Below, piece by piece: positions 10,684-31,893 of a stretch of 35,484 nt of DNA. Below the pieces are notes generated by a model. The model worked only from the letters and a program-made list of their open reading frames with translations, did not search any database and was not told the origin of the DNA. Source of the DNA: an uncultured Candidatus Saccharibacteria bacterium (lineage in GTDB: Bacteria; Patescibacteriota; Minisyncoccia; Phycocordibacterales; UBA9973); assembly GCA_964596395.1 (NCBI GenBank), contig CAZQSY010000007.1, positions 1 to 35,484 of the forward strand. Direction: 5' to 3'. A program made the translations under genes and the position numbers. How positions within the stretch are numbered: the first letter of the stretch is position 1; each line of letters starts with the position of its first letter.

Positions 10684-11575
10684 GGCAGTTCTTTTAAAAG
10701 AAACAATACAGGGCTTAGGCCTGAAAAAAGGCGCCAGGATTCTGGACGCCACATTCGGCGGCGGGGGACACTCGCTCTATGCGCTCGAGAATTTCCCGGG
10801 GACGGAAGTAACGGCGGTTGACCAGGATGCGGGAGCATGGAAGAGGGCAAAGGGAAAGTTCGCGGGTTTTGAAAAAAGAATTTTTTTCAGAAACATGAAC
10901 TTTCGGGATATAGACAAGCTGGCCCAAGGCGGCTTTGACGCAGTAATCCTCGACTTAGGCATTTCTTCAGACCAGCTCAACCCGAATCCGGCGGCCGGAG
11001 GCGCTTCCGGGAGAGGATTTTCTTTCATGGTATTGAGCGAACCGCTCCTCATGACCATGAAAGAAAATCCTTCTCCGGAGGACCTCTCTGCCATGGATGT
11101 GCTAAACGATTGGAGCGAGCAAACTCTGGCCGACATAATTTACGGCTACGGGGAAGAAAGGTACGCCAGGCGAATCGCCAAAGGCATCGCCGAAGCAAGA
11201 AGAAAGAAAAAAATCGAAACGGTCGGCGACTTAGTCGCGATTATCGAAAGGGCCGTGCCGGCGGGGTACAAGCGAGGCAGGACGCATTTTGCCACCAAGA
11301 CCTTTCAGGCGATTCGAATTGCGGTAAACGATGAACTTCGCGCCCTGAAAGAAGGATTGGAAAAAGGTTTTCAAGTTTTGAAAAAGAACGGGAGAATCGC
11401 GGTAATTTCTTTTCACAGTTTGGAAGACAGAATCGTAAAAAATTTTTACAAGCAAAAAGAAAAGGAGAGTGTCGGAAAAATTATAAATAAAAAGCCCTTG
11501 GTGCCCGGTGAAAAAGAGAGAAAAGAAAACCCGAGGTCAAGAAGCGCAAAACTTAGAATTTTAGAAAAAATATGA
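10655..11575 (+). CDS. rsmH: 16S rRNA (cytosine1402-N4)-methyltransferase RsmH
   Basis: H.AVLL.E....L......LDATFGGGGHS, DLGISS.QL, RGFSF and SFHSLEDRIVK motifs. Position directly after mraZ. Confidence 0.93.
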   Translation: MKEFTGSLHKAVLLKETIQGLGLKKGARILDATFGGGGHSLYALENFPGTEVTAVDQDAGAWKRAKGKFAGFEKRIFFRNMNFRDIDKLAQGGFDAVILDLGISSDQLNPNPAAGGASGRGFSFMVLSEPLLMTMKENPSPEDLSAMDVLNDWSEQTLADIIYGYGEERYARRIAKGIAEARRKKKIETVGDLVAIIERAVPAGYKRGRTHFATKTFQAIRIAVNDELRALKEGLEKGFQVLKKNGRIAVISFHSLEDRIVKNFYKQKEKESVGKIINKKPLVPGEKERKENPRSRSAKLRILEKI

Positions 11576-16555: not shown

Positions 16556-16630
16556 CTATTCCTCTTCCCTCGGCTTCTCGAGTGAAATCGCCGACAGTTC
16601 GGGCGAGGTGCCGGAGATGCTGAGTAGGTC
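16556..16630 (-). pseudogene. Orphan duplicate of the rmuC 3' end (last 24 codons plus stop); left direct repeat of the hicBA cassette
   Basis: By hand alignment, 68 of 75 nt are identical to 17136-17210, including a 49-nt perfect core (16566-16614 = 17146-17194). It translates in frame to DLLSISGTSPELSAISLEKPREEE*, against rmuC DVLRIAGTSPELSAISLEKPREEE*. Confidence 0.85.
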
Positions 16631-16651
16631 TTGCCTAACGCAAACGCAAGA

Positions 16652-17135: not shown

Positions 17136-18206
17136 TTATTCCTCCTCCCTCGGCTTCTCGAGTGAAATCGCCGACAGTTCGGGCGAGGTGCCGGCGATGC
17201 GGAGGACATCTTTGTCAATTTTCTTCAGTTCTTTGTTCGAGGCGTTGTAGTGGTTTACCACCGTACCCAAGGCATTGCCGAGTTTACCGTGATACTCGTC
17301 GTATGACTTCAGGTGTTTGCCGAGTTCTTCAACCCTTTTGATTATTTCTTTGGCCGATTCTTCGATTTGCAGGGCTTTCAGGCCTTGCAGAACAGTTTGT
17401 AAGTAAGCGAGGAAAGAAGTGGGGGAAGTGATAATAACTTTATATTTTCCGGCCGCGCGCTGAATAAGATTTTCGGAGCTTTCCTCGGTGGCCCCAACCT
17501 TGTTTGTCAGTAAGTCATAATAAATCGCTTCGTGCGGGATGAACATAAAGGCAAAGTCGGTAGTACCGCGCGAGGGCTGTATATATTTTGATGTTTCTAC
17601 GATTCTGTTTTTCAAATCATTCACGAAAATCGTTTCAAGTTTTTTCTTTTCGGCGGGGTCTCTTTCTTCGGCCATTTTGTTGTAGTTTTCAAGCGAGAAT
17701 TTTGAGTCAATCGGGATGATTTTATCTTTCACGAAAACAGCGGCGTCTACGATGGTCTCGTCGGGAAAGGCGTACTGCATCTGGTAGCTTCCGGGTGGCA
17801 AAACATTTTTTAGAACCGTCTCAAGATAATATTCGCCGAGGATTCCGCGCTGTTTCGGATTTTTCAATATATCCTGCAGGTTTTGCAGCTGGTCGGCGAA
17901 AGATATGACTTGCTTGTTGGTCTCATCCAGCCGGGTCAAGCGCTCGGTCACGTCGCGGATTATTTTGTTGGATTCGCTTGAGTGGAATTTAAGGCTTTCG
18001 TTTACCTGCTTGTGCGTTTCGCCGATTTTCTGGTCCACCGTGCGCGAAAGCTCATTCAACTGCTGGAGTATCAGCGTAAGCCCAGTGTCGTTTTTGCCGC
18101 CCTTCTTACCAAGCAAGAGATATACAATAATCCCTCCCGTCAAGATTGCTATGATTATCAGTAAGATATTTTCCATGAATGTTACGTAATGTATTACGTA
18201 ATACAT
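17136..18206 (-). CDS. rmuC: DNA recombination protein RmuC
   Basis: N-terminal TM helix, a long coiled coil, then an RmuC nuclease-like region (GILGEYYLETVL, VDAAVFVKDKIIPIDSKF, FMFIPHEAIY). ATG 18206 overlaps the upstream stop (TAATG). An alternative ATG is at 18176. Confidence 0.88.
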   Translation of the reverse strand: MYYVIHYVTFMENILLIIIAILTGGIIVYLLLGKKGGKNDTGLTLILQQLNELSRTVDQKIGETHKQVNESLKFHSSESNKIIRDVTERLTRLDETNKQVISFADQLQNLQDILKNPKQRGILGEYYLETVLKNVLPPGSYQMQYAFPDETIVDAAVFVKDKIIPIDSKFSLENYNKMAEERDPAEKKKLETIFVNDLKNRIVETSKYIQPSRGTTDFAFMFIPHEAIYYDLLTNKVGATEESSENLIQRAAGKYKVIITSPTSFLAYLQTVLQGLKALQIEESAKEIIKRVEELGKHLKSYDEYHGKLGNALGTVVNHYNASNKELKKIDKDVLRIAGTSPELSAISLEKPREEE

Positions 18207-19516: not shown

Positions 19517-20149
19517 TCCTACATGCATACTGTACAAATCTTAAACAATCTGGTGGGCGAATATCATACGCTGGCCTATCTGGTAATTTTTCTCGGCCTC
19601 ATTTTTGAGGGCGAGGTGGTGGTGCTCACTGCGGGGGTGTTGTCTCAGCTCGGGGCGCTCAATTTTTGGCCTTCGCTCGTTTTCATTTTTGCCGGGGGTA
19701 TGGTCAAGACCTTCGGCGGGTATTGGCTTGGCACATGGTTCGCCAGAAGGTATAAAGAAAATCATTTTCTGCGCGCGCTCGAAAGAAGAATTCTGTATTT
19801 CATGCCGAATTTTCGGAAGAAACCCTTCTGGTCTATTTTTCTTTCCAAGTTTATAATGGGAGTGAATTATCTGGTAGTTGTTTTTTCGGGATACCAGAAA
19901 GTAAATTTGAAAAATTATTTGCGGGCGGAAATTCTTTCAACACTCATTTGGGCGCCGGCTTTGCTCGCTCTCGGGTTCTTTTTCAGTCAGACGGCTCTGT
20001 CTATCACCAAAGAAATCGGAAAGTTTTCGCTGATAGTTGTTATCTTTGTGGCCGTGTTTTTGCTTTTCGATAAACTGGCCGCGACTTTTTACCGGGTGGT
20101 GCAGTATATAAAAAGTTTTAGCAATGGAAATGGAAACAGAGAAAAATAA
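19508..20149 (+). CDS. DedA/VTT-family membrane protein
   Basis: Multi-TM protein with the DedA-type motif YLVIFLGLIFEGE. The start is uncertain (GTG 19508 or ATG 19523), and neither has a clear SD. Confidence 0.75.
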   Translation: MFASYMHTVQILNNLVGEYHTLAYLVIFLGLIFEGEVVVLTAGVLSQLGALNFWPSLVFIFAGGMVKTFGGYWLGTWFARRYKENHFLRALERRILYFMPNFRKKPFWSIFLSKFIMGVNYLVVVFSGYQKVNLKNYLRAEILSTLIWAPALLALGFFFSQTALSITKEIGKFSLIVVIFVAVFLLFDKLAATFYRVVQYIKSFSNGNGNREK

Positions 20150-21059
20150 AAAAATATTGGTGACACACAACGGGTCTTTTCACGCCGATGATATTTTTGC
20201 CGCCGCGGCGCTTTCTTTGTATTTAGAAGGAAAGAGAGAAGATTTTGAAATAATCCGCACCCGCGACCCCGAAACGATAGAAAAAGGCGACTATGTTTTT
20301 GACATTGGCGGGATTTACGATCCCGAGAAAAACAGGTTCGACCACCACCAAAAGGGCGGAGCAGGCAAGTGGGAAGGCGGCCTGCCGGCGCAGGCGGGGA
20401 TAGAGTACGCCGCCTTCGGTCTGGTTTGGAAAAAGTTCGGACTGGGGCTTGCCGGCTCGGAAGAAGCAAAAGAAATCATAGACGAAAAACTGGTAGCTCC
20501 GATAGACGCGGGCGACAACGGCTTGGATTTAGAGGAAGAAGAAAGCGAGCACGCGATTTCTCCTTATTACATTCAGCATTTTTTTTCTTCGATGAGGCCG
20601 ACTTGGCGCGAAGCGAACATAAGCGCCGACGAAATGTTTTTAAAATGCGCGGAAGTGGCGAAAGAAATATTGCGCCGGGAAATTATTCAGGCAAAAGATT
20701 TTCTTTTGGCCGAAGAAAGAGTCGCGCATATTTATCGCGAGACCAAAGACAAACGGCTCATAATTCTAGACCAAGATTATCCGCACGAGTATGTTTTGAG
20801 AAATTTCCCCGAACCACTCTTTGTCGTGTATCCGAGGACCACCTACGGCACCTGGGGCGTGAAGGCCGTGCGCGATAATCCTAAAACATTCAAAAACCGT
20901 AAAAACTTTCCGGCTCACTGGGGTGGTTTGCGCGATGAAGAGCTTCAAAATGTTACCGGTGTGAAAGACGCTGTTTTTTGCCACAGAGGGCTTTTCTTGG
21001 CGGTGGCGAAATCCAAAGAAGGCGCGCTGGCACTGGCGAACCTCGCGTTGAAAAACTGA
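20124..21059 (+). CDS. MYG1/UPF0160 family metal-dependent hydrolase
   Basis: VTHNGSFHADDIFA and NRFDHHQ motifs. 311 aa. Confidence 0.85.
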   Translation: MEMETEKNKKILVTHNGSFHADDIFAAAALSLYLEGKREDFEIIRTRDPETIEKGDYVFDIGGIYDPEKNRFDHHQKGGAGKWEGGLPAQAGIEYAAFGLVWKKFGLGLAGSEEAKEIIDEKLVAPIDAGDNGLDLEEEESEHAISPYYIQHFFSSMRPTWREANISADEMFLKCAEVAKEILRREIIQAKDFLLAEERVAHIYRETKDKRLIILDQDYPHEYVLRNFPEPLFVVYPRTTYGTWGVKAVRDNPKTFKNRKNFPAHWGGLRDEELQNVTGVKDAVFCHRGLFLAVAKSKEGALALANLALKN

Positions 21060-21064
21060 ATTGG

Positions 21065-21208
21065 GCACAAAGAAAATAAAAACCTAATTTTTTGTCGGTA
21101 CGGAATTTTTGAAGCTTTAAAATTCCTGAAGTTGGCTCGCCGTCCCTGCCTGCCGGCAGGCAGGGCTCGCCAAACCCCTTAAAAAATTTGTTTTTGTTTT
21201 CTTTGTGC
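21065..21208. repeat. 144-nt composite nested palindrome (MITE-like or structured-RNA-like) between the MYG1 gene and obg
   Basis: Outer arms GCACAAAGAAAATAAAAAC (21065-21083) / GTTTTTGTTTTCTTTGTGC (21190-21208), 18/19 complementary. A second pair is AATTTTTT (21086-21093) / AAAAAATT (21181-21188). Two inner hairpins: GGAATTTT...AAAATTCC (21102-21126) and the perfect 22-bp palindrome CCCTGCCTGCCGGCAGGCAGGG (21144-21165). Confidence 0.7.
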
Positions 21209-21233
21209 TGGAACTTTATGGTAACATCAAGCT

Positions 21234-22244
21234 ATGGCTTTCATTGACGAAATAACGATACACGCCGAGGCGGGTAGGGGCGGCGACGGCGTGGTGAGAT
21301 GGCGCAAAGAAAAATTCGTGCCGAAAGGCGGACCGGCCGGCGGCGACGGCGGCCGGGGCGGCGATTTCTACGCGCGGGCGGTGCGGGATATTCACATACT
21401 TTCAAAGTACAAAGCAAAAAAAGAATTCAAAGCCGGGCGGGGAGAAGACGGCGCCAAAAAAAGTTTGCATGGAAAAAAAGGAGAGGACTTGTCGCTCGAC
21501 CTGCCGGTCGGCTGTGTAGTTACGAACATCGATTCGGGCGATAAATGGCAGCTCTTGACAGAAGGGGAAAAAATTCTGCTTCTCCGAGGCGGCTACGGCG
21601 GCTACGGTAACGAGCATTTTAAAAGTTCCACGAATGTTGCTCCGAAAGAATCGAATCTGGGGAAGGAGGGGGAACAGGGCAATTTTCTTATCGAGCTTGA
21701 ACTTTTTGCCGATGTCGGTCTGATAGGCCTGCCAAATGCCGGCAAATCGTCGCTTTTGAACGCGCTTACCAATGCGGAGGCCAAGGTCGGCGATTACGCT
21801 TTCACTACGCTCGACCCGAATTTGGGAAGTTTCTACGGCTACACAGTCGCCGATATCCCCGGGCTTATCGAAGGCGCCAACGTCGGCAAGGGCTTGGGTG
21901 TGAAATTTTTGCGTCACATAAAACGCACGAAAATGCTCGCGCATTTGGTTTCTTTTGAAAATTTATCCCGCGGTTCGGGCGGAATGATGAAGGCCTATCA
22001 GGAAATACGCGCGGAATTGAAGAAATACGACGAGAAACAGAACTTGGCAGGAAATGGGCTTTGCGAAAAGGACGAAATCGTCGTTCTTACTAAATCAGAC
22101 ACAGTGGAAGACCCCACTCTGCGCGCTAAAAAAGTCAAGGAGTTTGAAAAATTAGGCGATAAGGTTTTTGAAATTTCTCTATTTGATGATAAGTCCGTAA
22201 AAGAATTTGCGGACAGCTTGATTAAAATTCTGCGTGAATTATGA
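21234..22244 (+). CDS. obg: GTPase Obg/CgtA
   Basis: Glycine-rich Obg fold (GGDGGRGG), G1 motif GLPNAGKSSL, DIPGLIEGA, and TKSD (NKxD-like). Confidence 0.95.
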   Translation: MAFIDEITIHAEAGRGGDGVVRWRKEKFVPKGGPAGGDGGRGGDFYARAVRDIHILSKYKAKKEFKAGRGEDGAKKSLHGKKGEDLSLDLPVGCVVTNIDSGDKWQLLTEGEKILLLRGGYGGYGNEHFKSSTNVAPKESNLGKEGEQGNFLIELELFADVGLIGLPNAGKSSLLNALTNAEAKVGDYAFTTLDPNLGSFYGYTVADIPGLIEGANVGKGLGVKFLRHIKRTKMLAHLVSFENLSRGSGGMMKAYQEIRAELKKYDEKQNLAGNGLCEKDEIVVLTKSDTVEDPTLRAKKVKEFEKLGDKVFEISLFDDKSVKEFADSLIKILREL

Positions 22245-24664: not shown

Positions 24665-25519
24665 ATGAAAACCTTGCGCGAATATATACGCGAAGCCGAA
24701 GAGAAAAAAGTCGCCATTGGGCATTTCAATATTTCCAATCTTGAAACATTTCACGGCGTGTATAGTGCCGCCAAGAAACTCGGCGTGCCGATAATTATCG
24801 GTCTCTCTGAAGGAGAAGAGGATTTTATGGGAAAAAATGAAATGGTTTCCATGATAAAGGGATTGCGGGAAAAAGAAAATTATCCTGTGTTCTTAAACGC
24901 TGACCATCATTATAGTTTTGAAAGAGTGAAGGACTCGATTGATGCCGGTTTTGATTCGGTTATTTTCGACGGAGCCAAATTAAGTTTTGAAGAAAACGTC
25001 AAAATGGCCAGACAATGTGTTGATTACGCCAAAGAGTCAGAAAAAGGGACACTCATTGAAGCCGAGCTGGGTTACATCGGCTCTGGTTCAAACATAAAAG
25101 AAAATGTTCCAGAAGGGGCAGGGATAAAGACAGAACCGGAAGAAGCAAAAAAATTCGTAGAGATGACGGGCGTGGATATGCTAGCGCCTTCAGTCGGTAG
25201 TATTCACGGCCTCATAAAAAGCGGCAAGCCCCACATAGACGGGGAGTTAGTGGCCCAAATTAGAGCGTCGGCCGGAGTGCCTCTGGTGCTCCATGGCGGG
25301 TCGGGCTTGCGAGACGAAGATTTTGTAAACGCGATAAAGAACGGTATATCTATCGTCCACATCAGCACCGAATTGCGCGTCGCATACGACGAGGCGCTCA
25401 AGAAATCTCTCTCCGAGCACCCCGAAGAAATCGCTCCCTACAAAATACTAGAACCCGCCGTACAAGCTGTCGAAAAAGCCGCCGAAGCCCGCCTGAAACT
25501 TTTCAATAATCTTCTTTAG
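24665..25519 (+). CDS. fba: Class II fructose-bisphosphate aldolase family protein
   Basis: AIGHFN, LNADHH, and LVLHGGSG motifs. Start set at ATG 24665. Confidence 0.88.
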   Translation: MKTLREYIREAEEKKVAIGHFNISNLETFHGVYSAAKKLGVPIIIGLSEGEEDFMGKNEMVSMIKGLREKENYPVFLNADHHYSFERVKDSIDAGFDSVIFDGAKLSFEENVKMARQCVDYAKESEKGTLIEAELGYIGSGSNIKENVPEGAGIKTEPEEAKKFVEMTGVDMLAPSVGSIHGLIKSGKPHIDGELVAQIRASAGVPLVLHGGSGLRDEDFVNAIKNGISIVHISTELRVAYDEALKKSLSEHPEEIAPYKILEPAVQAVEKAAEARLKLFNNLL

Positions 25520-25529
25520 TTGAAATTAT

Positions 25530-25560
25530 CATTCCAATGTTCTATAGAATGTTAGAATGA
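25530..25560 (+). promoter_or_regulatory. Imperfect palindrome / 16-mer box overlapping the arsR-family gene start
   Basis: CATTC-caatg-TTCTA|TAGAA-tgtta-GAATG is symmetric about 25544/25545. The 16-mer TAGAATGTTAGAATGA (25545-25560) recurs at 25829-25844 with 15/16 identity. Confidence 0.45.
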
Positions 25561-25844
25561 AAAATATGCCTAAAAAATTAGAGTATAAAAGATTGGAAAG
25601 AATCGTAAAAGGTTTTTCGAATCACAGGAGGATTCAGATATTGGAACTTCTAAACAAAGAGCCAGAACTGTCCGTGCAGGAAATTTCCGAAAGGTTAAAC
25701 TCGGAAATGAAAAATATTTCCGCCCACATTACTAAAATGGCGGTCGCAGGTCTTTTGATGAAACGTAGCGACAGTAAATCCATCCGTCACAAACTAACCA
25801 ATCGCGGAAAAGTCATTCTAAAGTTCGTTAGAATGTTGGAATGA
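25557..25844 (+). CDS. ArsR/SmtB-family transcriptional regulator
   Basis: 95 aa. Winged-HTH pattern FSNHRRIQILELLNKEPELSVQEISERLNSEMKNISAHITKMAVAGLL. Confidence 0.85.
   Translation: MKNMPKKLEYKRLERIVKGFSNHRRIQILELLNKEPELSVQEISERLNSEMKNISAHITKMAVAGLLMKRSDSKSIRHKLTNRGKVILKFVRMLE
25814..25844 (+). promoter_or_regulatory. Second GAATG-box site (inverted repeat plus 16-mer) just upstream of the FAD-oxidase gene
   Basis: CATTCTAA-agttcg-TTAGAATG (25814-25835) and TAGAATGTTGGAATGA (25829-25844), inside the last codons of the regulator gene and 12 nt before GTG 25857. Confidence 0.4.
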
Positions 25845-25856
25845 GTTTAAAACACC

Positions 25857-27623
25857 GTGAAAGACGAAATTAAAAAAATTTTCAGGGGGGGAGTGGAGGA
25901 TGATGAAGAAACGCTTATGAAATATTCGCGCGACGCGAGCATTTTTGAAGTGCGGCCGAAGATGGTGCTTTTTCCGCTCGACTCGGAAGACGTGAAAAAT
26001 TTAGTGAAATGGGTTTCGGAAAATAAAGACAAATACAATCTTTCAATCACTCCGCGCGGCGCGGGGACGGACATGTCGGGCGGAGCGATTGGCGAATCGT
26101 TGATTTTGGATTTTACCAGACACATGAATAAATTAATTTCTTTTAAATCCTCAAAGCATGCGGGTTCAGCTTTTTCTTCTATTACTGTCCAACCCGGCAT
26201 GTTTTACCGAGATTTTGAAAAAATAACTTTAAAAAAAGGGCTTATTTTGCCTTGCTATACGGCTTCAAAGAATTTGAACACGATCGGCGGAATGTTCGGA
26301 AACAATTCGGCGGGGGAAAGGACGCTTAAATACGGGCAGACAGAGGATTACGTACTTGAGGCGAAAATTGTTTTGTCGGACGGGAATGAATACACAGTGA
26401 AGCCGCTCTCTCAGAAAGAACTCCAAGAAAAAATCGTACGGAACGATTTTGAAGCGGAAATTTATAAGAAGATTTATGAACTGGTAAACAAAAACAGGGA
26501 AGAAATAAAACACGCCAAGCCGGGCGTGCATAAAAATTCTTCGGGATATTTTATATGGAATGTAGTGAACGAGGGACTGCACGATTTTCGAAATTGCGCC
26601 CTCGGAGACAAAAGGACAGGGAACCCACACGTTTCTGAAAATCGTGCAGTCCCTCGTTTTGATTTAAACAAATTGCTGGTCGGCTCGCAGGGGACATTGG
26701 GAATAATGACCGAGGTGACTCTTCGGCTCGTACCGAATCCAAAATATTCAAAGCTGGTGGTAATTTTTCTCAATGATTTGGAGCCCCTCGGCCGTCTGGT
26801 TGACGAAATATTGAAGGAAAATCCTGAAACTCTAGAATCCTACGACAATAAGACGCTGAAACTCGCCGTAAAATTTTTCAGGGATTTTATGCGGAACAAG
26901 GGAATAGCGGGTATGACAAAATTTTTATGGAATTTTTTGCCCGAGTTTAAAATGCTTGTGTCGGGCGGGTTCCCGAAGATGATTCTTTTGGCCGAATTTT
27001 CGGGCGAGAACGAGGCCTCGGTGCACGAGAAATGCGCGTCTCTGGAAAAAAGAATCAGCGTGTTTCGGTTGAAGACGCACATCACGAAGTCGGAAGAAGA
27101 AGCCGAAAAATATTGGGACATCCGCCGGGAAAGTTTTTCCCTGCTTCGGCATCACGTGAAGAAACTCCACACCGCGCCTTTCATAGACGACATCATCGTG
27201 CGCCCCGAGTTTCTGCCGAAATTTATCCCCGAACTTAACGCCATTTTAAAAAAATACAAACTGATTTACACCATCGCCGGCCACGCAGGGGACGGGAATT
27301 TTCATATTATTCCGCTGATGGATTTTTCGCGCTCTGACACGGCCGAAATAATATCCGAACTTTCCGAAAAAGTATACGACCTAGTCTTGAAATATCACGG
27401 TTCGATTACTGCCGAGCACAACGACGGGCTGGTTCGCACGCCTTACCTGGAAAAGATGTTTGGGAAAGAGATCTGCAAAATTTTCAGAGAAATAAAAAAC
27501 ATTTTTGACCCGCAAAATATTTTCAATCCCGGCAAGAAAGTTCCCGTTCCCGGTGCCGCCGGAACGAAAGAGTATCTGACTTCGCATATAATTTCAGAAC
27601 ACAACGTGACCCACAGGGTCTGA
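25857..27623 (+). CDS. FAD-linked oxidase (GlcD/D-lactate dehydrogenase-like) carrying an internal palindromic insert
   Basis: FAD-binding PCMH-type region (PRGAGTDMSGG), LLVGSQGTLGIMTEVTLRL, and C-terminal HAGDGNFH..AEHNDG. GTG start. Confidence 0.85.
   Translation: MKDEIKKIFRGGVEDDEETLMKYSRDASIFEVRPKMVLFPLDSEDVKNLVKWVSENKDKYNLSITPRGAGTDMSGGAIGESLILDFTRHMNKLISFKSSKHAGSAFSSITVQPGMFYRDFEKITLKKGLILPCYTASKNLNTIGGMFGNNSAGERTLKYGQTEDYVLEAKIVLSDGNEYTVKPLSQKELQEKIVRNDFEAEIYKKIYELVNKNREEIKHAKPGVHKNSSGYFIWNVVNEGLHDFRNCALGDKRTGNPHVSENRAVPRFDLNKLLVGSQGTLGIMTEVTLRLVPNPKYSKLVVIFLNDLEPLGRLVDEILKENPETLESYDNKTLKLAVKFFRDFMRNKGIAGMTKFLWNFLPEFKMLVSGGFPKMILLAEFSGENEASVHEKCASLEKRISVFRLKTHITKSEEEAEKYWDIRRESFSLLRHHVKKLHTAPFIDDIIVRPEFLPKFIPELNAILKKYKLIYTIAGHAGDGNFHIIPLMDFSRSDTAEIISELSEKVYDLVLKYHGSITAEHNDGLVRTPYLEKMFGKEICKIFREIKNIFDPQNIFNPGKKVPVPGAAGTKEYLTSHIISEHNVTHRV
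26567..26659. repeat. 93-nt palindromic element in-frame within the FAD-oxidase CDS
   Basis: Perfect 22-nt inverted repeat AACGAGGGACTGCACGATTTTC (26568-26589) / GAAAATCGTGCAGTCCCTCGTT (26637-26658), extendable by one G-U pair at each end. Confidence 0.9.
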
Positions 27624-30004: not shown

Positions 30005-30111
30005 GAAGCTAGAGCTCCTAAAATTTTTTGTCCCTGAGCCCTTCTTCGGTGCGCTTTAGGTCCCCGAAGCGGGACCCTCGGGTAGCAAAAAATTTTGGGG
30101 CTCTAGCTTTT
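30005..30111 (+). repeat. About 107-nt long imperfect hairpin between rpmE and prfA
   Basis: Outer stem AAGCTAGAGCTCCTAAAATTTTTTG (30006-30030) / CAAAAAATTTTGGGGCTCTAGCTT (30086-30109), about 24 bp with one bulge and one G-U. The GC-rich interior pairs CCC(T)GAG/CTCGGG and CTTCGG/CCGAAG. Confidence 0.7.
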
Positions 30112-30120
30112 AAGACATTT

Positions 30121-31083
30121 ATGGACCTAGATGAACTTAAAAAAGATCATAAGACGAGTTATTTGGCGGAAACACTCGAGAAACTCGCTCGCGAAGAAGC
30201 GCAAGTCAGGGAAATGCTCGGCGGTGATGATGACTTGCATGAGATGGCGGCGGCCGAACTGAAATACATAGAAGAGCAAAGGGATACCGTACGGAAACAA
30301 GTTGAGGATATTCTGAAAAAAGAAAAAGAAGAAGACGAATCTCCTAACGAAATAGTGCTCGAAATACGAGCCGGAGCGGGGGGCGACGAGGCCTCGCTTT
30401 TTGCCTGGGAGCTTGCCCATATGTACGAGATGTTTTCAGACGCGCAGGGCTGGCAATGGAGGGTAAATTACGAATCAAAAAGCGAGTTGGGCGGTTTTAA
30501 GGAAGCCAGTTTCGAAATAAAAGGGAAGGATGTGTACAAGATGCTCCGGTACGAGACGGGCGTGCATCGGGTGCAGAGAGTTCCGGCTACCGAGAAGAAC
30601 GGCAGGGTGCACACTTCTACCGCTTCGGTCGCCATTTTGCCGATTCGCAAAAAAGTAACGGTGGAAATAAATCCGGCTGACATCGAAATGGAATACTCGC
30701 GCTCGGGCGGCAAAGGCGGACAAAATGTGAACAAGGTTGAGACAGCCGTGCGGCTCATTCACAAGCCGACGGGCATCGACGTGCGTTCTACCAACGAACG
30801 CAGCCAACAGGCGAACCGCGAAAAAGCAATGATGATTTTAACTGCCAAACTGCAGGCATTGAAAGAAGAAGAAGAGGCGAAAAAATACGCCGGCGAGCGG
30901 AAAAATCAAATCGGTACCGGCGACCGAAGCGAGAAAATCCGCACTTACAACTTTCCGCAGGACCGCATTACCGACCACCGGGTGAAAAAATCCTGGCACA
31001 ATCTGCCGAAACTGATGGGGGGCGGGATAAGCGATATCGTAGAGGCCTTAGAATCCGGCGAGCAGGGAACCGACGAAGAGTAA
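30121..31083 (+). CDS. prfA: Peptide chain release factor 1
   Basis: PAT tripeptide ([14 protein letters not shown]) and the GGQ motif ([11 protein letters not shown]). Start set at ATG 30121. The N-terminal domain looks shorter than in E. coli RF1. Confidence 0.92.
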
Positions 31084-31301: not shown

Positions 31302-31619
31302 ATGGCTAAAAAGCTATACGTAGGGGGTCTCCCTTACAGCACACAGGAAGATGCTCTTCGCGAGTATTTCTCCCAGGCCGGCAATGTTACGTCGGCTACT
31401 ATTATCATGGATAAAATGACTGGTCGTTCAAAGGGTTTCGGATTCGTTGAAATGTCAAACGATGATGAAGCGCTGAAGGCGATTGAAATGTTCCATGACA
31501 AGGAATTTGAGGGCCGCAAGCTGACGGTTAACGAAGCTCGCCCGATGGAATCCCGCCCGCCTCGTTCGCAGGGTTACTCAAACGGTAACGGCGGATACGG
31601 TGGCAGGAGAGAATACTAA
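31302..31619 (+). CDS. RRM-type RNA-binding protein with a Gly-rich tail
   Basis: RNP-2 LYVGGL, RNP-1 KGFGFVEM, and a C-terminal GYSNGNGGYGGRREY. Confidence 0.9.
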   Translation: MAKKLYVGGLPYSTQEDALREYFSQAGNVTSATIIMDKMTGRSKGFGFVEMSNDDEALKAIEMFHDKEFEGRKLTVNEARPMESRPPRSQGYSNGNGGYGGRREY

Positions 31620-31635
31620 ATTTCTTTCACAAAAC

Positions 31636-31663
31636 AAAAAAACCACTTCATAGTGGTTTTTTT
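31636..31663 (+). terminator. Rho-independent terminator after the RRM-protein gene
   Basis: AAAAAAACCACT-tcat-AGTGGTTTTTTT, a perfect 12-bp stem with a T-run. Confidence 0.8.
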
Positions 31664-31700
31664 GTTTCTTTTTTGTTATATTTTCCCCATTGAGTATTTC

Positions 31701-31757
31701 GAGCGTGTAGTTCAGTGGTACCTGCCTGCCGGTAGGCAGGGAACGCTGTCCTGAAAG
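31701..31757 (+). pseudogene. Truncated tRNA-Ile 5' half carrying a 20-nt palindromic insertion
   Basis: 31701-31720 and 31741-31754 are identical to nt 1-20 and 21-34 of the intact tRNA-Ile. They are split by CCTGCCTGCCGGTAGGCAGG (31721-31740). There is no 3' half. Confidence 0.85.
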
Positions 31758-31784
31758 CTTTGGTTGTTTTAAAATTTTAAAAAT

Positions 31785-31856
31785 GAGCGTGTAGTTCAGT
31801 GGTAGAACGCTGTCCTGATAAGACAGAGGTCGATGGTTCGATCCCATCCACGCTCA
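31785..31856 (+). tRNA. tRNA-Ile (anticodon GAU)
   Basis: Acceptor GAGCGTG/CACGCTC, D arm GTTC-AGTGGTA-GAAC, anticodon stem CTGTC/GACAG with loop CTGATAA, T arm GATGG-TTCGATC-CCATC. Confidence 0.92.
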
Positions 31857-31893
31857 CCGATTTGCATCTTGGATTTCTTTGCCCTATACTATA

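Follow-up and report, generated by a model that had tools for sequence, protein, structure and literature searches.

The 35,484-nt window analysed here (contig CAZQSY010000007.1 of assembly GCA_964596395.1) carries a gene of the MYG1/UPF0160 family followed on the same strand by the GTPase gene obg (Table 1). Most of the 174-nt spacer between them is occupied by a 144-nt nested palindrome, which is the subject of this report and which consists of a repeat that we term type A and a 20-nt palindrome, P, lodged within it. A first-pass annotation of the sequence had described the spacer as almost entirely one symmetric element with arms resembling terminal inverted repeats (TIRs), and its account of the symmetry was borne out. 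The outer arms, 21065-21092 and 21181-21208, span 28 nt and were 86% complementary according to an inverted-repeat tool; within them, the sub-arms 21065-21083/21190-21208 and 21086-21093/21181-21188 pair at 18 of 19 and 8 of 8 positions, exactly as annotated. The interior holds an AT hairpin (hairpin 1, 21102-21109 pairing with 21119-21126) and a second hairpin with the perfect 22-nt palindrome CCCTGCCTGCCGGCAGGCAGGG at 21144-21165, beside which lie GGCTCGCC direct repeats at 21134-21141 and 21164-21171; both hairpins and the 8-nt repeats had been correctly recognized at the first pass. The predicted RNA fold of 21060-21215 reached -64.9 kcal/mol versus -37.1 ± 3.7 for dinucleotide shuffles (z = -7.5), and a covariance model built from four type A copies scored 106.8 bits across the element.

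The assembly of the window was checked against Logan contigs of runs X1 to X4, X1 being the source metagenome run (SRR15237813). Source-run contigs back the spacer at approximately 11-15x depth, and a 46-nt unitig at 15x crosses P together with both of its flanks. Logan contigs do break at the centre of P, which is what an assembly or library artefact, such as a palindrome made at a contig join, might leave behind. Such an origin is scarcely credible given the unitig that crosses P, the presence of P in complete isolate genomes (e.g. CP123444.1) and in assemblies from many technologies, and the structured biological contexts in which P occurs, namely tRNA D-loops and sites upstream of a GIY-YIG nuclease gene.

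For comparison we assembled 80 metagenomic obg loci, confirmed by tblastn and with 67-78% amino-acid identity. MYG1 lies directly upstream of obg in nearly all of these loci, and many of the orthologous spacers are just 5-15 nt long (e.g. L168, L172 and L208). The longer spacers, of 100-270 nt, hold one of three types of insert: type A (L241, L239 and L218), type B (about 14 loci) or a promoter-like type C. L241 and L239 carry type A in the same orientation as the window, while L218 carries it inverted at the same site. The predominance of short spacers without the element already contradicts the view that the palindrome is an ordinary conserved terminator or promoter region of the MYG1-obg pair. 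We regard that view as highly improbable despite the intergenic position, the GC-rich hairpin and a weak -35/-10 match at 21048-21077 in a consensus promoter scan, since no terminator was called within 21060-21233, the GC stem has no U-tract (P is followed by GCTCGCCAAACCCC), and the same core recurs at other loci. For the obg promoter, which the first-pass annotation expected within or around the element, the only candidates are the weak match and an extended -10-like motif read by eye, TGGTAACAT (21219-21227). To judge by sequence, obg may start from this motif of its own, possibly yielding a leaderless mRNA; the promoter scan did not report this motif.

The type A copies share a conserved core, G(Y)CGGTAC-GGATTTTTTGAAGCTTAAAAAATCC-TGAAGTT-CTCGGCTCGTCAGCCTCG-AAACCCCTT, of which AAACCCCTT is kept in every copy. 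Their arms are long and AT-rich and differ in sequence from copy to copy, the interior being the conserved part; the arms, which the first-pass annotation had called TIR-like, are not conserved TIRs. Core identity is 81-94%, compared with a nucleotide identity of 71-76% for the obg genes, and the nearest relative of the L241 Obg is that of L168 (86% amino-acid identity), whose spacer is empty; the distribution of type A is therefore not simply vertical. In the source run, words of the core (21096-21142) reach a depth of 180-260x versus approximately 11x for the genome, and the core lies on at least 11 contigs whose flanks all differ; four of these measure 12.3, 5.9, 3.2 and 2.8 kb, with depths of 10.7-14x. 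The covariance model also recovered A-like elements directly upstream of a yqeY-like gene (L210 1403-1523, 43.5 bits; L229 1345-1453; L209 927-1034; and L212). These data establish type A as an inserted, dispersed repeat. Both analyses had been proposed at the first pass, and the search for copies found the core in three relatives, at a second intergenic site and on multiple source-metagenome contigs; most orthologous spacers proved to be without the element.

The yqeY-like upstream site of L218 (671-767) is occupied by a type B element, and among the relatives this short spacer is a second hot spot shared by A-like and B elements. By eye, the strings CUGAAGU and CGAAAC in L241 resemble the core of a hammerhead ribozyme; we rejected this candidate (hammerhead or twister) because the strings are not conserved in L239 or in the window.

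A broader possibility, also raised at the first pass, is a functional RNA with a three-way junction. It would be the product of a small RNA gene or would act in cis on obg as a leader or as an element for processing or stability, with loops under selection at the RNA level and stems that co-vary. The very stable fold would agree with this, as would the conservation of junctions and loops while differing stems still pair, the better conservation of the core than of obg itself and the tendency of copies to adjoin the start codons of obg and yqeY. We nonetheless consider it unlikely. The Rfam comparison suggested at the first pass gave no family in Rfam 15 for the window element, the type A copies lacking P, the type B copies or the tRNA-associated cassettes described below, tRNAs and chance matches aside, even at E ≤ 10. 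In addition, the L218 copy is inverted at the same site, most orthologous spacers lack the element, it is multi-copy in the metagenome, the sister family B has the same architecture and occurs in frame inside open reading frames (ORFs), and hairpin 2 of the window copy has accommodated an insert of 20 nt. The first-pass annotation had left the choice between such an RNA and an element akin to a miniature inverted-repeat transposable element (MITE). Its MITE-like option holds in the broad sense of an inserted, dispersed, non-coding palindromic element that fills the spacer, although not as a single element, and the RNA option is disfavoured by the dispersal, the inverted copy, the empty spacers and the sister family within ORFs.

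That sister family, type B, consists of the core GCCCTCGGAG..AAGGACAGGGRACCCAC within copy-specific arms, and is the insert found in the MYG1-obg spacer of about 14 relatives. The window itself holds a type B element within an FAD-linked oxidase ORF (25857-27623), which stays open through it. Among the oxidase orthologues of Nomurabacteria and Paceibacterota (65-71% identity), some are shorter by approximately 30 residues at exactly this point (seven short forms: P0134, P0138, P0143, P0178, P0179, P0183 and P0200), and the others carry inserts with the same core. The core is read as ALGDKRTGNP in the window and as ALGDVKTGNP or ALGDIKTGDP in orthologues using the same frame; in other orthologues it is read in a different frame (APSEPKGQGTHTF), and in some a second type B insertion hot spot lies within the same protein. 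In-frame palindromic inserts that are absent from orthologues are thus a feature of type B, type A having been seen in intergenic sites only. A further long-stem element in the rpmE-prfA spacer has 33-nt arms and a B-like GC core; the TTG-start ORF listed at 30028 probably starts later, at an ATG near 30122. An origin of the arms by inverted copying of the target was not supported, as the short oxidase orthologues and the empty MYG1-obg spacers are without both arms.

Since types A and B share their architecture and their insertion sites, we read type A as a probable non-autonomous palindromic DNA repeat of the same class as type B. On the best explanation, A, B and B-like elements form a set of families lodged in the few short spacers that such compact genomes have between their genes. 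Because they fill short spacers and type B also lies in frame within genes, they behave like MITEs or like Rickettsia palindromic elements (RPEs), which are selfish DNA found in protein-coding genes of Rickettsia and for which, to our knowledge, no transposase is known. The likeness to RPEs lies in non-coding palindromic repeats of approximately 90-150 bp, dispersed in the intergenic spacers of a reduced genome, and, for family B only, in in-frame insertion into an ORF with presence or absence among orthologues. It is a likeness of behaviour and not of sequence: the host here belongs to a different phylum, of the candidate phyla radiation (CPR), for which reason homology to RPE consensus sequences is not expected; the stems vary per copy, with the core alone conserved; and type A itself occurs in intergenic sites only. 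A literature search found no paper linking RPEs to Patescibacteria. MITEs and the Correia and enterobacterial repetitive intergenic consensus (ERIC) elements are likewise small, non-autonomous, multi-copy and hairpin-forming and lie in spacers next to genes, and type A shares with MITEs the dispersed non-coding copies that are present or absent at orthologous sites. Unlike those elements, type A has no conserved TIRs, no clear target-site duplication and no identified cognate insertion sequence (IS).

Palindrome P is a separate, secondary and clean 20-nt insertion into a pre-existing type A element. The type A copies of L241, L239 and L218 lack P and have a short GC stem as hairpin 2. A source-run unitig of 53 nt, with a depth of 39.8x, matches window positions 21101-21144 with two mismatches and continues directly with GCTCGCCAA, which is the same hairpin minus exactly 21145-21164. 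The one-element framing of the first-pass annotation therefore gives way to a composite. Because this unitig retains both GCTCGCC copies, the repeats beside P predate it and P made no target duplication, and the GGCTCGCC repeats were accordingly rejected as a target-site duplication. The inverted arms and the GGCTCGCC direct repeat are what would be expected of a single MITE with TIR-like arms, an integral GC palindrome and its own 8-bp target duplication. The unitig, the type A copies without P, the occurrence of P alone in hundreds of unrelated contexts and the lack of arm conservation among copies contradict this reading and make a single MITE highly improbable.

The same mode of insertion was seen elsewhere. 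At 18 loci where one local sequence occurs both with and without P, P is a clean 20-nt insertion with zero duplication; these pairs include tRNA D-loops (GGTA^GAGC and similar) as well as non-tRNA sites. Direct repeats beside P are enriched overall (35 versus approximately 6). Given that the 18 pairs show no duplication and that P often lies in or near degenerate tandem word repeats, the excess seems to reflect insertion into tandem-repeat-like DNA. Short degenerate tandem words of this kind were observed around or beside P at, for example, L029, L066, L071, L080, L090, L105 and L130.

We scanned for exact P using one genome per species; the genome count is a lower bound. Exact P was found at at least 120 genome loci from many phyla, with flanks unrelated between loci, and in 47 viral contigs, where only a few matches would be expected by chance; the cores of types A and B had no match in the viral-contig scans. 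Among the matches listed are Patescibacteria (Saccharibacteria, WWE3, Uhrbacteria, Doudnabacteria, Daviesbacteria and Wolfebacteria), Bacteroidota, including cultured Winogradskyella, Olivibacter and Flagellimonas, and Omnitrophota, Planctomycetes, Bdellovibrionales, Chloroflexi, Nitrospirae, Ignavibacteria and proteobacterial metagenome-assembled genomes (MAGs). The palindromic extension of P stops at 20 nt. Its insertion sites have no fixed target motif, the one bias being at position +1, which is depleted in A. If a hairpin loop is defined as no more than 10 nt closed by a stem of 6 bp or longer, 20 of 189 insertion points of P fall in one, compared to approximately 4 in shuffles and 2.7% at shifted sites, and at L020, L026, L059 and L065 P is nested in the centre of another P. 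P is thus a discrete cross-phylum unit with sharp boundaries that is inserted without duplication. In our literature search no description of the P sequence itself was found. In another type A copy of run X1, the tip of hairpin 1 is interrupted by 37 inserted nucleotides, CCGCCTGCATCAGCTATGCTGAAAGCATTGCGGGCAG (joint at window position 21114/21115), a further instance of nesting in a hairpin loop.

When ORFs within 3.5 kb of P were clustered across 167 loci, no family occurred in more than seven loci and the sole meaningful one was a GIY-YIG protein; no RAYT-like gene (REP-associated tyrosine transposase; REP, repetitive extragenic palindromic) was enriched near P, and no TnpA was seen among these ORFs from the surroundings of P. 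The recurrent neighbour is a protein of approximately 80 residues that matches the Pfam GIY-YIG domain at E = 1e-14 to 1e-15 and whose closest solved structures are the UPF0213 proteins EF2693 and BH0048, followed by SLX1. Its ORF begins 20-64 nt 3' of P at L025, L052, L089, L093, L117 and L162. The order of the cassette is constant: the 5' part of a tRNA up to the D-loop, P, the next 9-50 nt of the same tRNA, a linker, the GIY-YIG ORF and an intact copy of that tRNA, which often overlaps the GIY-YIG stop codon. The tRNAs concerned are Lys in L052, Leu in L093, Arg in L025 and Met in L117, and L162 is a viral contig.

As an independent test, 10 homologue loci were chosen by protein similarity alone. 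Nine of them adjoin a tRNA gene, and exact P lies in the pseudo-tRNA of seven (L249, Asn; L250, Arg; L252, Leu; L254, Arg; L255, Arg; L256, Asn; L258, Leu). L257 has no P, the D-loop position of P is taken in L259 (about 1140-1200) by another GC palindrome, CCTGCCCGAACGTACCTTTTCGGTACGGGCGGG, and L251 is mirrored, with the P-like variant CCGCCTTGCCGGCGAGGCAGG at 1752-1775 in a duplicated tRNA 3' end. The last two loci suggest that the hairpin, rather than its exact sequence, may matter in these cassettes. P thus occurs in physical linkage with a gene for a UPF0213/Slx1-like nuclease and with tRNA 5' parts that have been duplicated, a cassette of which we found no description in the literature.

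Variants of the arrangement were also noted. In the complete genome of Croceiramulus getboli (CP123444.1), two tandem P-GIY-YIG cassettes precede one tRNA-Arg (L255 1158-1764); Dokdonia and Namhaeicola are further cultivable hosts of the cassette. In L252 (1458-1898) two successive P-bearing pseudo-copies precede tRNA-Leu, and the locus also has a second, different 20-nt hairpin. A full-length tRNA-Met call contains P at L151 2239-2330. At L089 (3741-4151), P and the GIY-YIG domain lie in frame in the middle of an ORF resembling the specificity subunit HsdS of type I restriction-modification systems, as judged by eye from the translation.

The window holds a second copy of P, at 31721-31740 and with one mismatch; 0 of 100 shuffles gave any such match. 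The first-pass annotation had noted the same palindrome, at 19 of 20 positions, as an insertion in tRNA-Ile; the palindrome is indeed there, and it interrupts a 5' pseudo-copy 30 nt upstream of the functional gene rather than the gene itself. The order of the locus (tRNA-Ile positions 1-20, P, positions 21-34, a 30-nt linker and the intact tRNA-Ile) is that of the GIY-YIG cassettes of L052, L162, L249, L250, L255 and L256, with the linker in place of the GIY-YIG ORF. A profile search found no GIY-YIG domain in the window or in 81 obg loci; the ORF missing from the tRNA-Ile locus is present at L052, L093, L162, L249-L256 and L258. From its sequence, the locus looks like a decayed, ORF-less remnant of a cassette. 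Since the window lacks the nuclease gene, both P copies of this genome would be passive remnants.

P shares traits with several known systems. Like the REPs of the REP/REPIN-RAYT system (PMC3116915), it is a short, GC-rich palindrome of approximately 20 nt that lies mostly outside genes and shows no obvious duplication. REPs are species-specific and co-evolve with the gene for the RAYT (Y1 HUH) transposase (PMC3116915), whereas P is identical across phyla and phages and the associated gene is that of a GIY-YIG nuclease only. The GC clusters of yeast mitochondria (PMC4478555) and the PstI palindromes of Neurospora are also very short, mobile, GC-rich palindromes that nest and lie in AT-rich intergenic DNA; those, however, are organellar and lineage-specific and have no nuclease-tRNA cassette. 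IS200/IS605-type elements insert without duplication next to a fixed 4-5-nt target and go with a TnpA gene in the genome; P shows duplication-free insertion, no fixed target motif and no TnpA in its vicinity. The cassette resembles SegB of phage T4, a free-standing GIY-YIG homing endonuclease in the T4 tRNA cluster that can drive local duplication or amplification (PMC2330249, PMC13096335): in both, a GIY-YIG gene lies among tRNA genes and is inherited with neighbouring tRNA sequence. It differs in that its protein, known from sequence, is a minimal nuclease of approximately 80 residues of the UPF0213/Slx1 branch with no DNA-binding domain, and in that the cassette is chromosomal in many phyla, duplicates the 5' part of the tRNA and has a fixed palindrome in the pseudo-copy.

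Taken together, we put the probability at roughly three in four that the 144-nt palindrome is two nested non-coding pieces, most likely selfish, in a Nomurabacteria-like CPR (Patescibacteria) genome. A type A repeat would first have entered a spacer whose usual length is 5-15 nt, and P would later have inserted cleanly into hairpin 2 of that repeat; the typical home of P is the D-loop of a duplicated tRNA 5' fragment upstream of the gene for the approximately 80-residue nuclease, followed by the restored tRNA.

Several observations weigh against parts of this interpretation. No transposase or other mobilizing gene was found for A or B, and the window encodes no enzyme that would mobilize them. 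The unconserved arms are atypical of a TIR-binding transposase. A target-site duplication of the outer element is not evident, the ends being flanked only by a 3-nt TGG (21062-21064 and 21209-21211) that has no similar counterpart at L241 or L239, and no single population was seen to hold this exact locus both with and without the element. At the tRNA-Ile locus, the Logan contigs from X1 to X4 do not cover 31567-31786, so that the remnant rests on the window assembly. As regards P, only some 10-18% of its sites are in obvious hairpin loops, and approximately 90% of copies are solo and far from any tRNA or GIY-YIG gene (approximately 10% are near a tRNA), which makes the link between solo P and the nuclease inferential.

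Within the two-layer interpretation, copying of A and B may take place at the DNA level, with a hairpin or cruciform as the intermediate and an enzyme acting in trans that recognizes the core. For P, we tentatively suggest that the GIY-YIG nuclease is structure-specific and cuts hairpin, cruciform or D-loop-like DNA, after which repair would copy P from a donor; candidate substrates would be the D-arm, P itself and hairpin 2 of type A, and the conservation of tRNA sequence could supply the homology with which the cassette crosses phyla. It is conceivable, if still somewhat doubtful, that P is the cis element of an undescribed cross-phylum mobile system made up of a 20-bp palindrome and a minimal UPF0213/Slx1-like GIY-YIG nuclease. 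Such a system would home into tRNA D-loops through near-universal tRNA homology, duplicating the 5' part and restoring the gene, and would seed solo P, without duplication, into hairpin loops, including those of other selfish elements such as this CPR repeat. Any RNA reading through from MYG1 into obg would fold into a three-way junction of great stability, and this may insulate or stabilize the RNA.

Identity of 20 non-coding nucleotides to the letter across Patescibacteria, Bacteroidota, Planctomycetes, Omnitrophota, proteobacterial MAGs and phages is rare, and it points to horizontal spread with tRNA genes as universal landing pads. If the proposed system is real, P would be among the smallest mobile DNA units known in bacteria and the UPF0213 family would gain a function, giving a testable role to the widespread, uncharacterized UPF0213/YhbQ-like GIY-YIG proteins. 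With the A and B families, ultra-small CPR genomes would prove to harbour selfish palindromes akin to RPEs, not only in the few spacers they have but also inside ORFs that look essential. P and these elements also break de Bruijn assemblies and yield pseudo-tRNA calls, which is relevant to the annotation of MAGs.

Table 1. Coordinates of the spacer element, its parts and related features in the window.
Feature	Position	Strand	Description	Basis
MYG1/UPF0160-family gene	20124..21059	+	Upstream neighbour	Pfam PF03690, E = 4e-66
obg GTPase gene	21234..22244	+	Downstream neighbour	Pfam GTP1_OBG and MMR_HSR1
Composite element	21065..21208	n/a	Type A palindromic repeat with nested palindrome P	Inverted repeats, fold, covariance model
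Left outer arm	21065..21093	.	A-rich, copy-specific; pairs with 21181-21208	
Conserved type A core, 5' part	21094..21131	+	In order: junction GTCGGTAC, hairpin 1 (GGAATTTT-TGAAGCTTT-AAAATTCC), junction TGAAG	88-92% identical to L241, L239 and L218 (inverted)
Hairpin 2 of type A, 5' side	21132..21144	+	TTGGCTCGCCGTC; ends where P inserted	
Palindrome P	21145..21164	.	CCTGCCTGCCGGCAGGCAGG; nested clean 20-nt insertion	
Hairpin 2, 3' side, and conserved junction	21165..21180	+	GCTCGCCAA, then ACCCCTT	
Right outer arm	21181..21208	.	T-rich	Inverted-repeat search
Putative extended -10-like motif	21219..21227	+	TGGTAACAT; 7 nt before the obg ATG	Read by eye
Type B sister element	26568..26658	+	22-nt perfect arms and conserved core; in frame inside FAD-linked oxidase ORF	
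Long-stem palindromic element	30006..30109	.	B-like core; rpmE-prfA spacer	
tRNA-Ile 5' pseudo-copy (positions 1-34)	31701..31754	+	P (T variant) at 31721-31740 in D-loop	
Linker and intact tRNA-Ile(GAT)	31755..31858	+	30-nt linker, then tRNA at 31785-31858	ARAGORN and Rfam

Other repeats were noted in the window. An inverted repeat of 32 nt with 84% complementarity (11006-11079) lies inside the rsmH (MraW) ORF and is probably no insertion, since the protein matches the Pfam model from end to end. A 76-nt direct repeat with 92% identity is present at 16557-16632 and 17137-17212, the copies being 580 nt apart. Finally, an overlapping AT-rich palindrome at 25512-25577, between an aldolase gene and the gene for a small winged-helix regulator, may be an operator.

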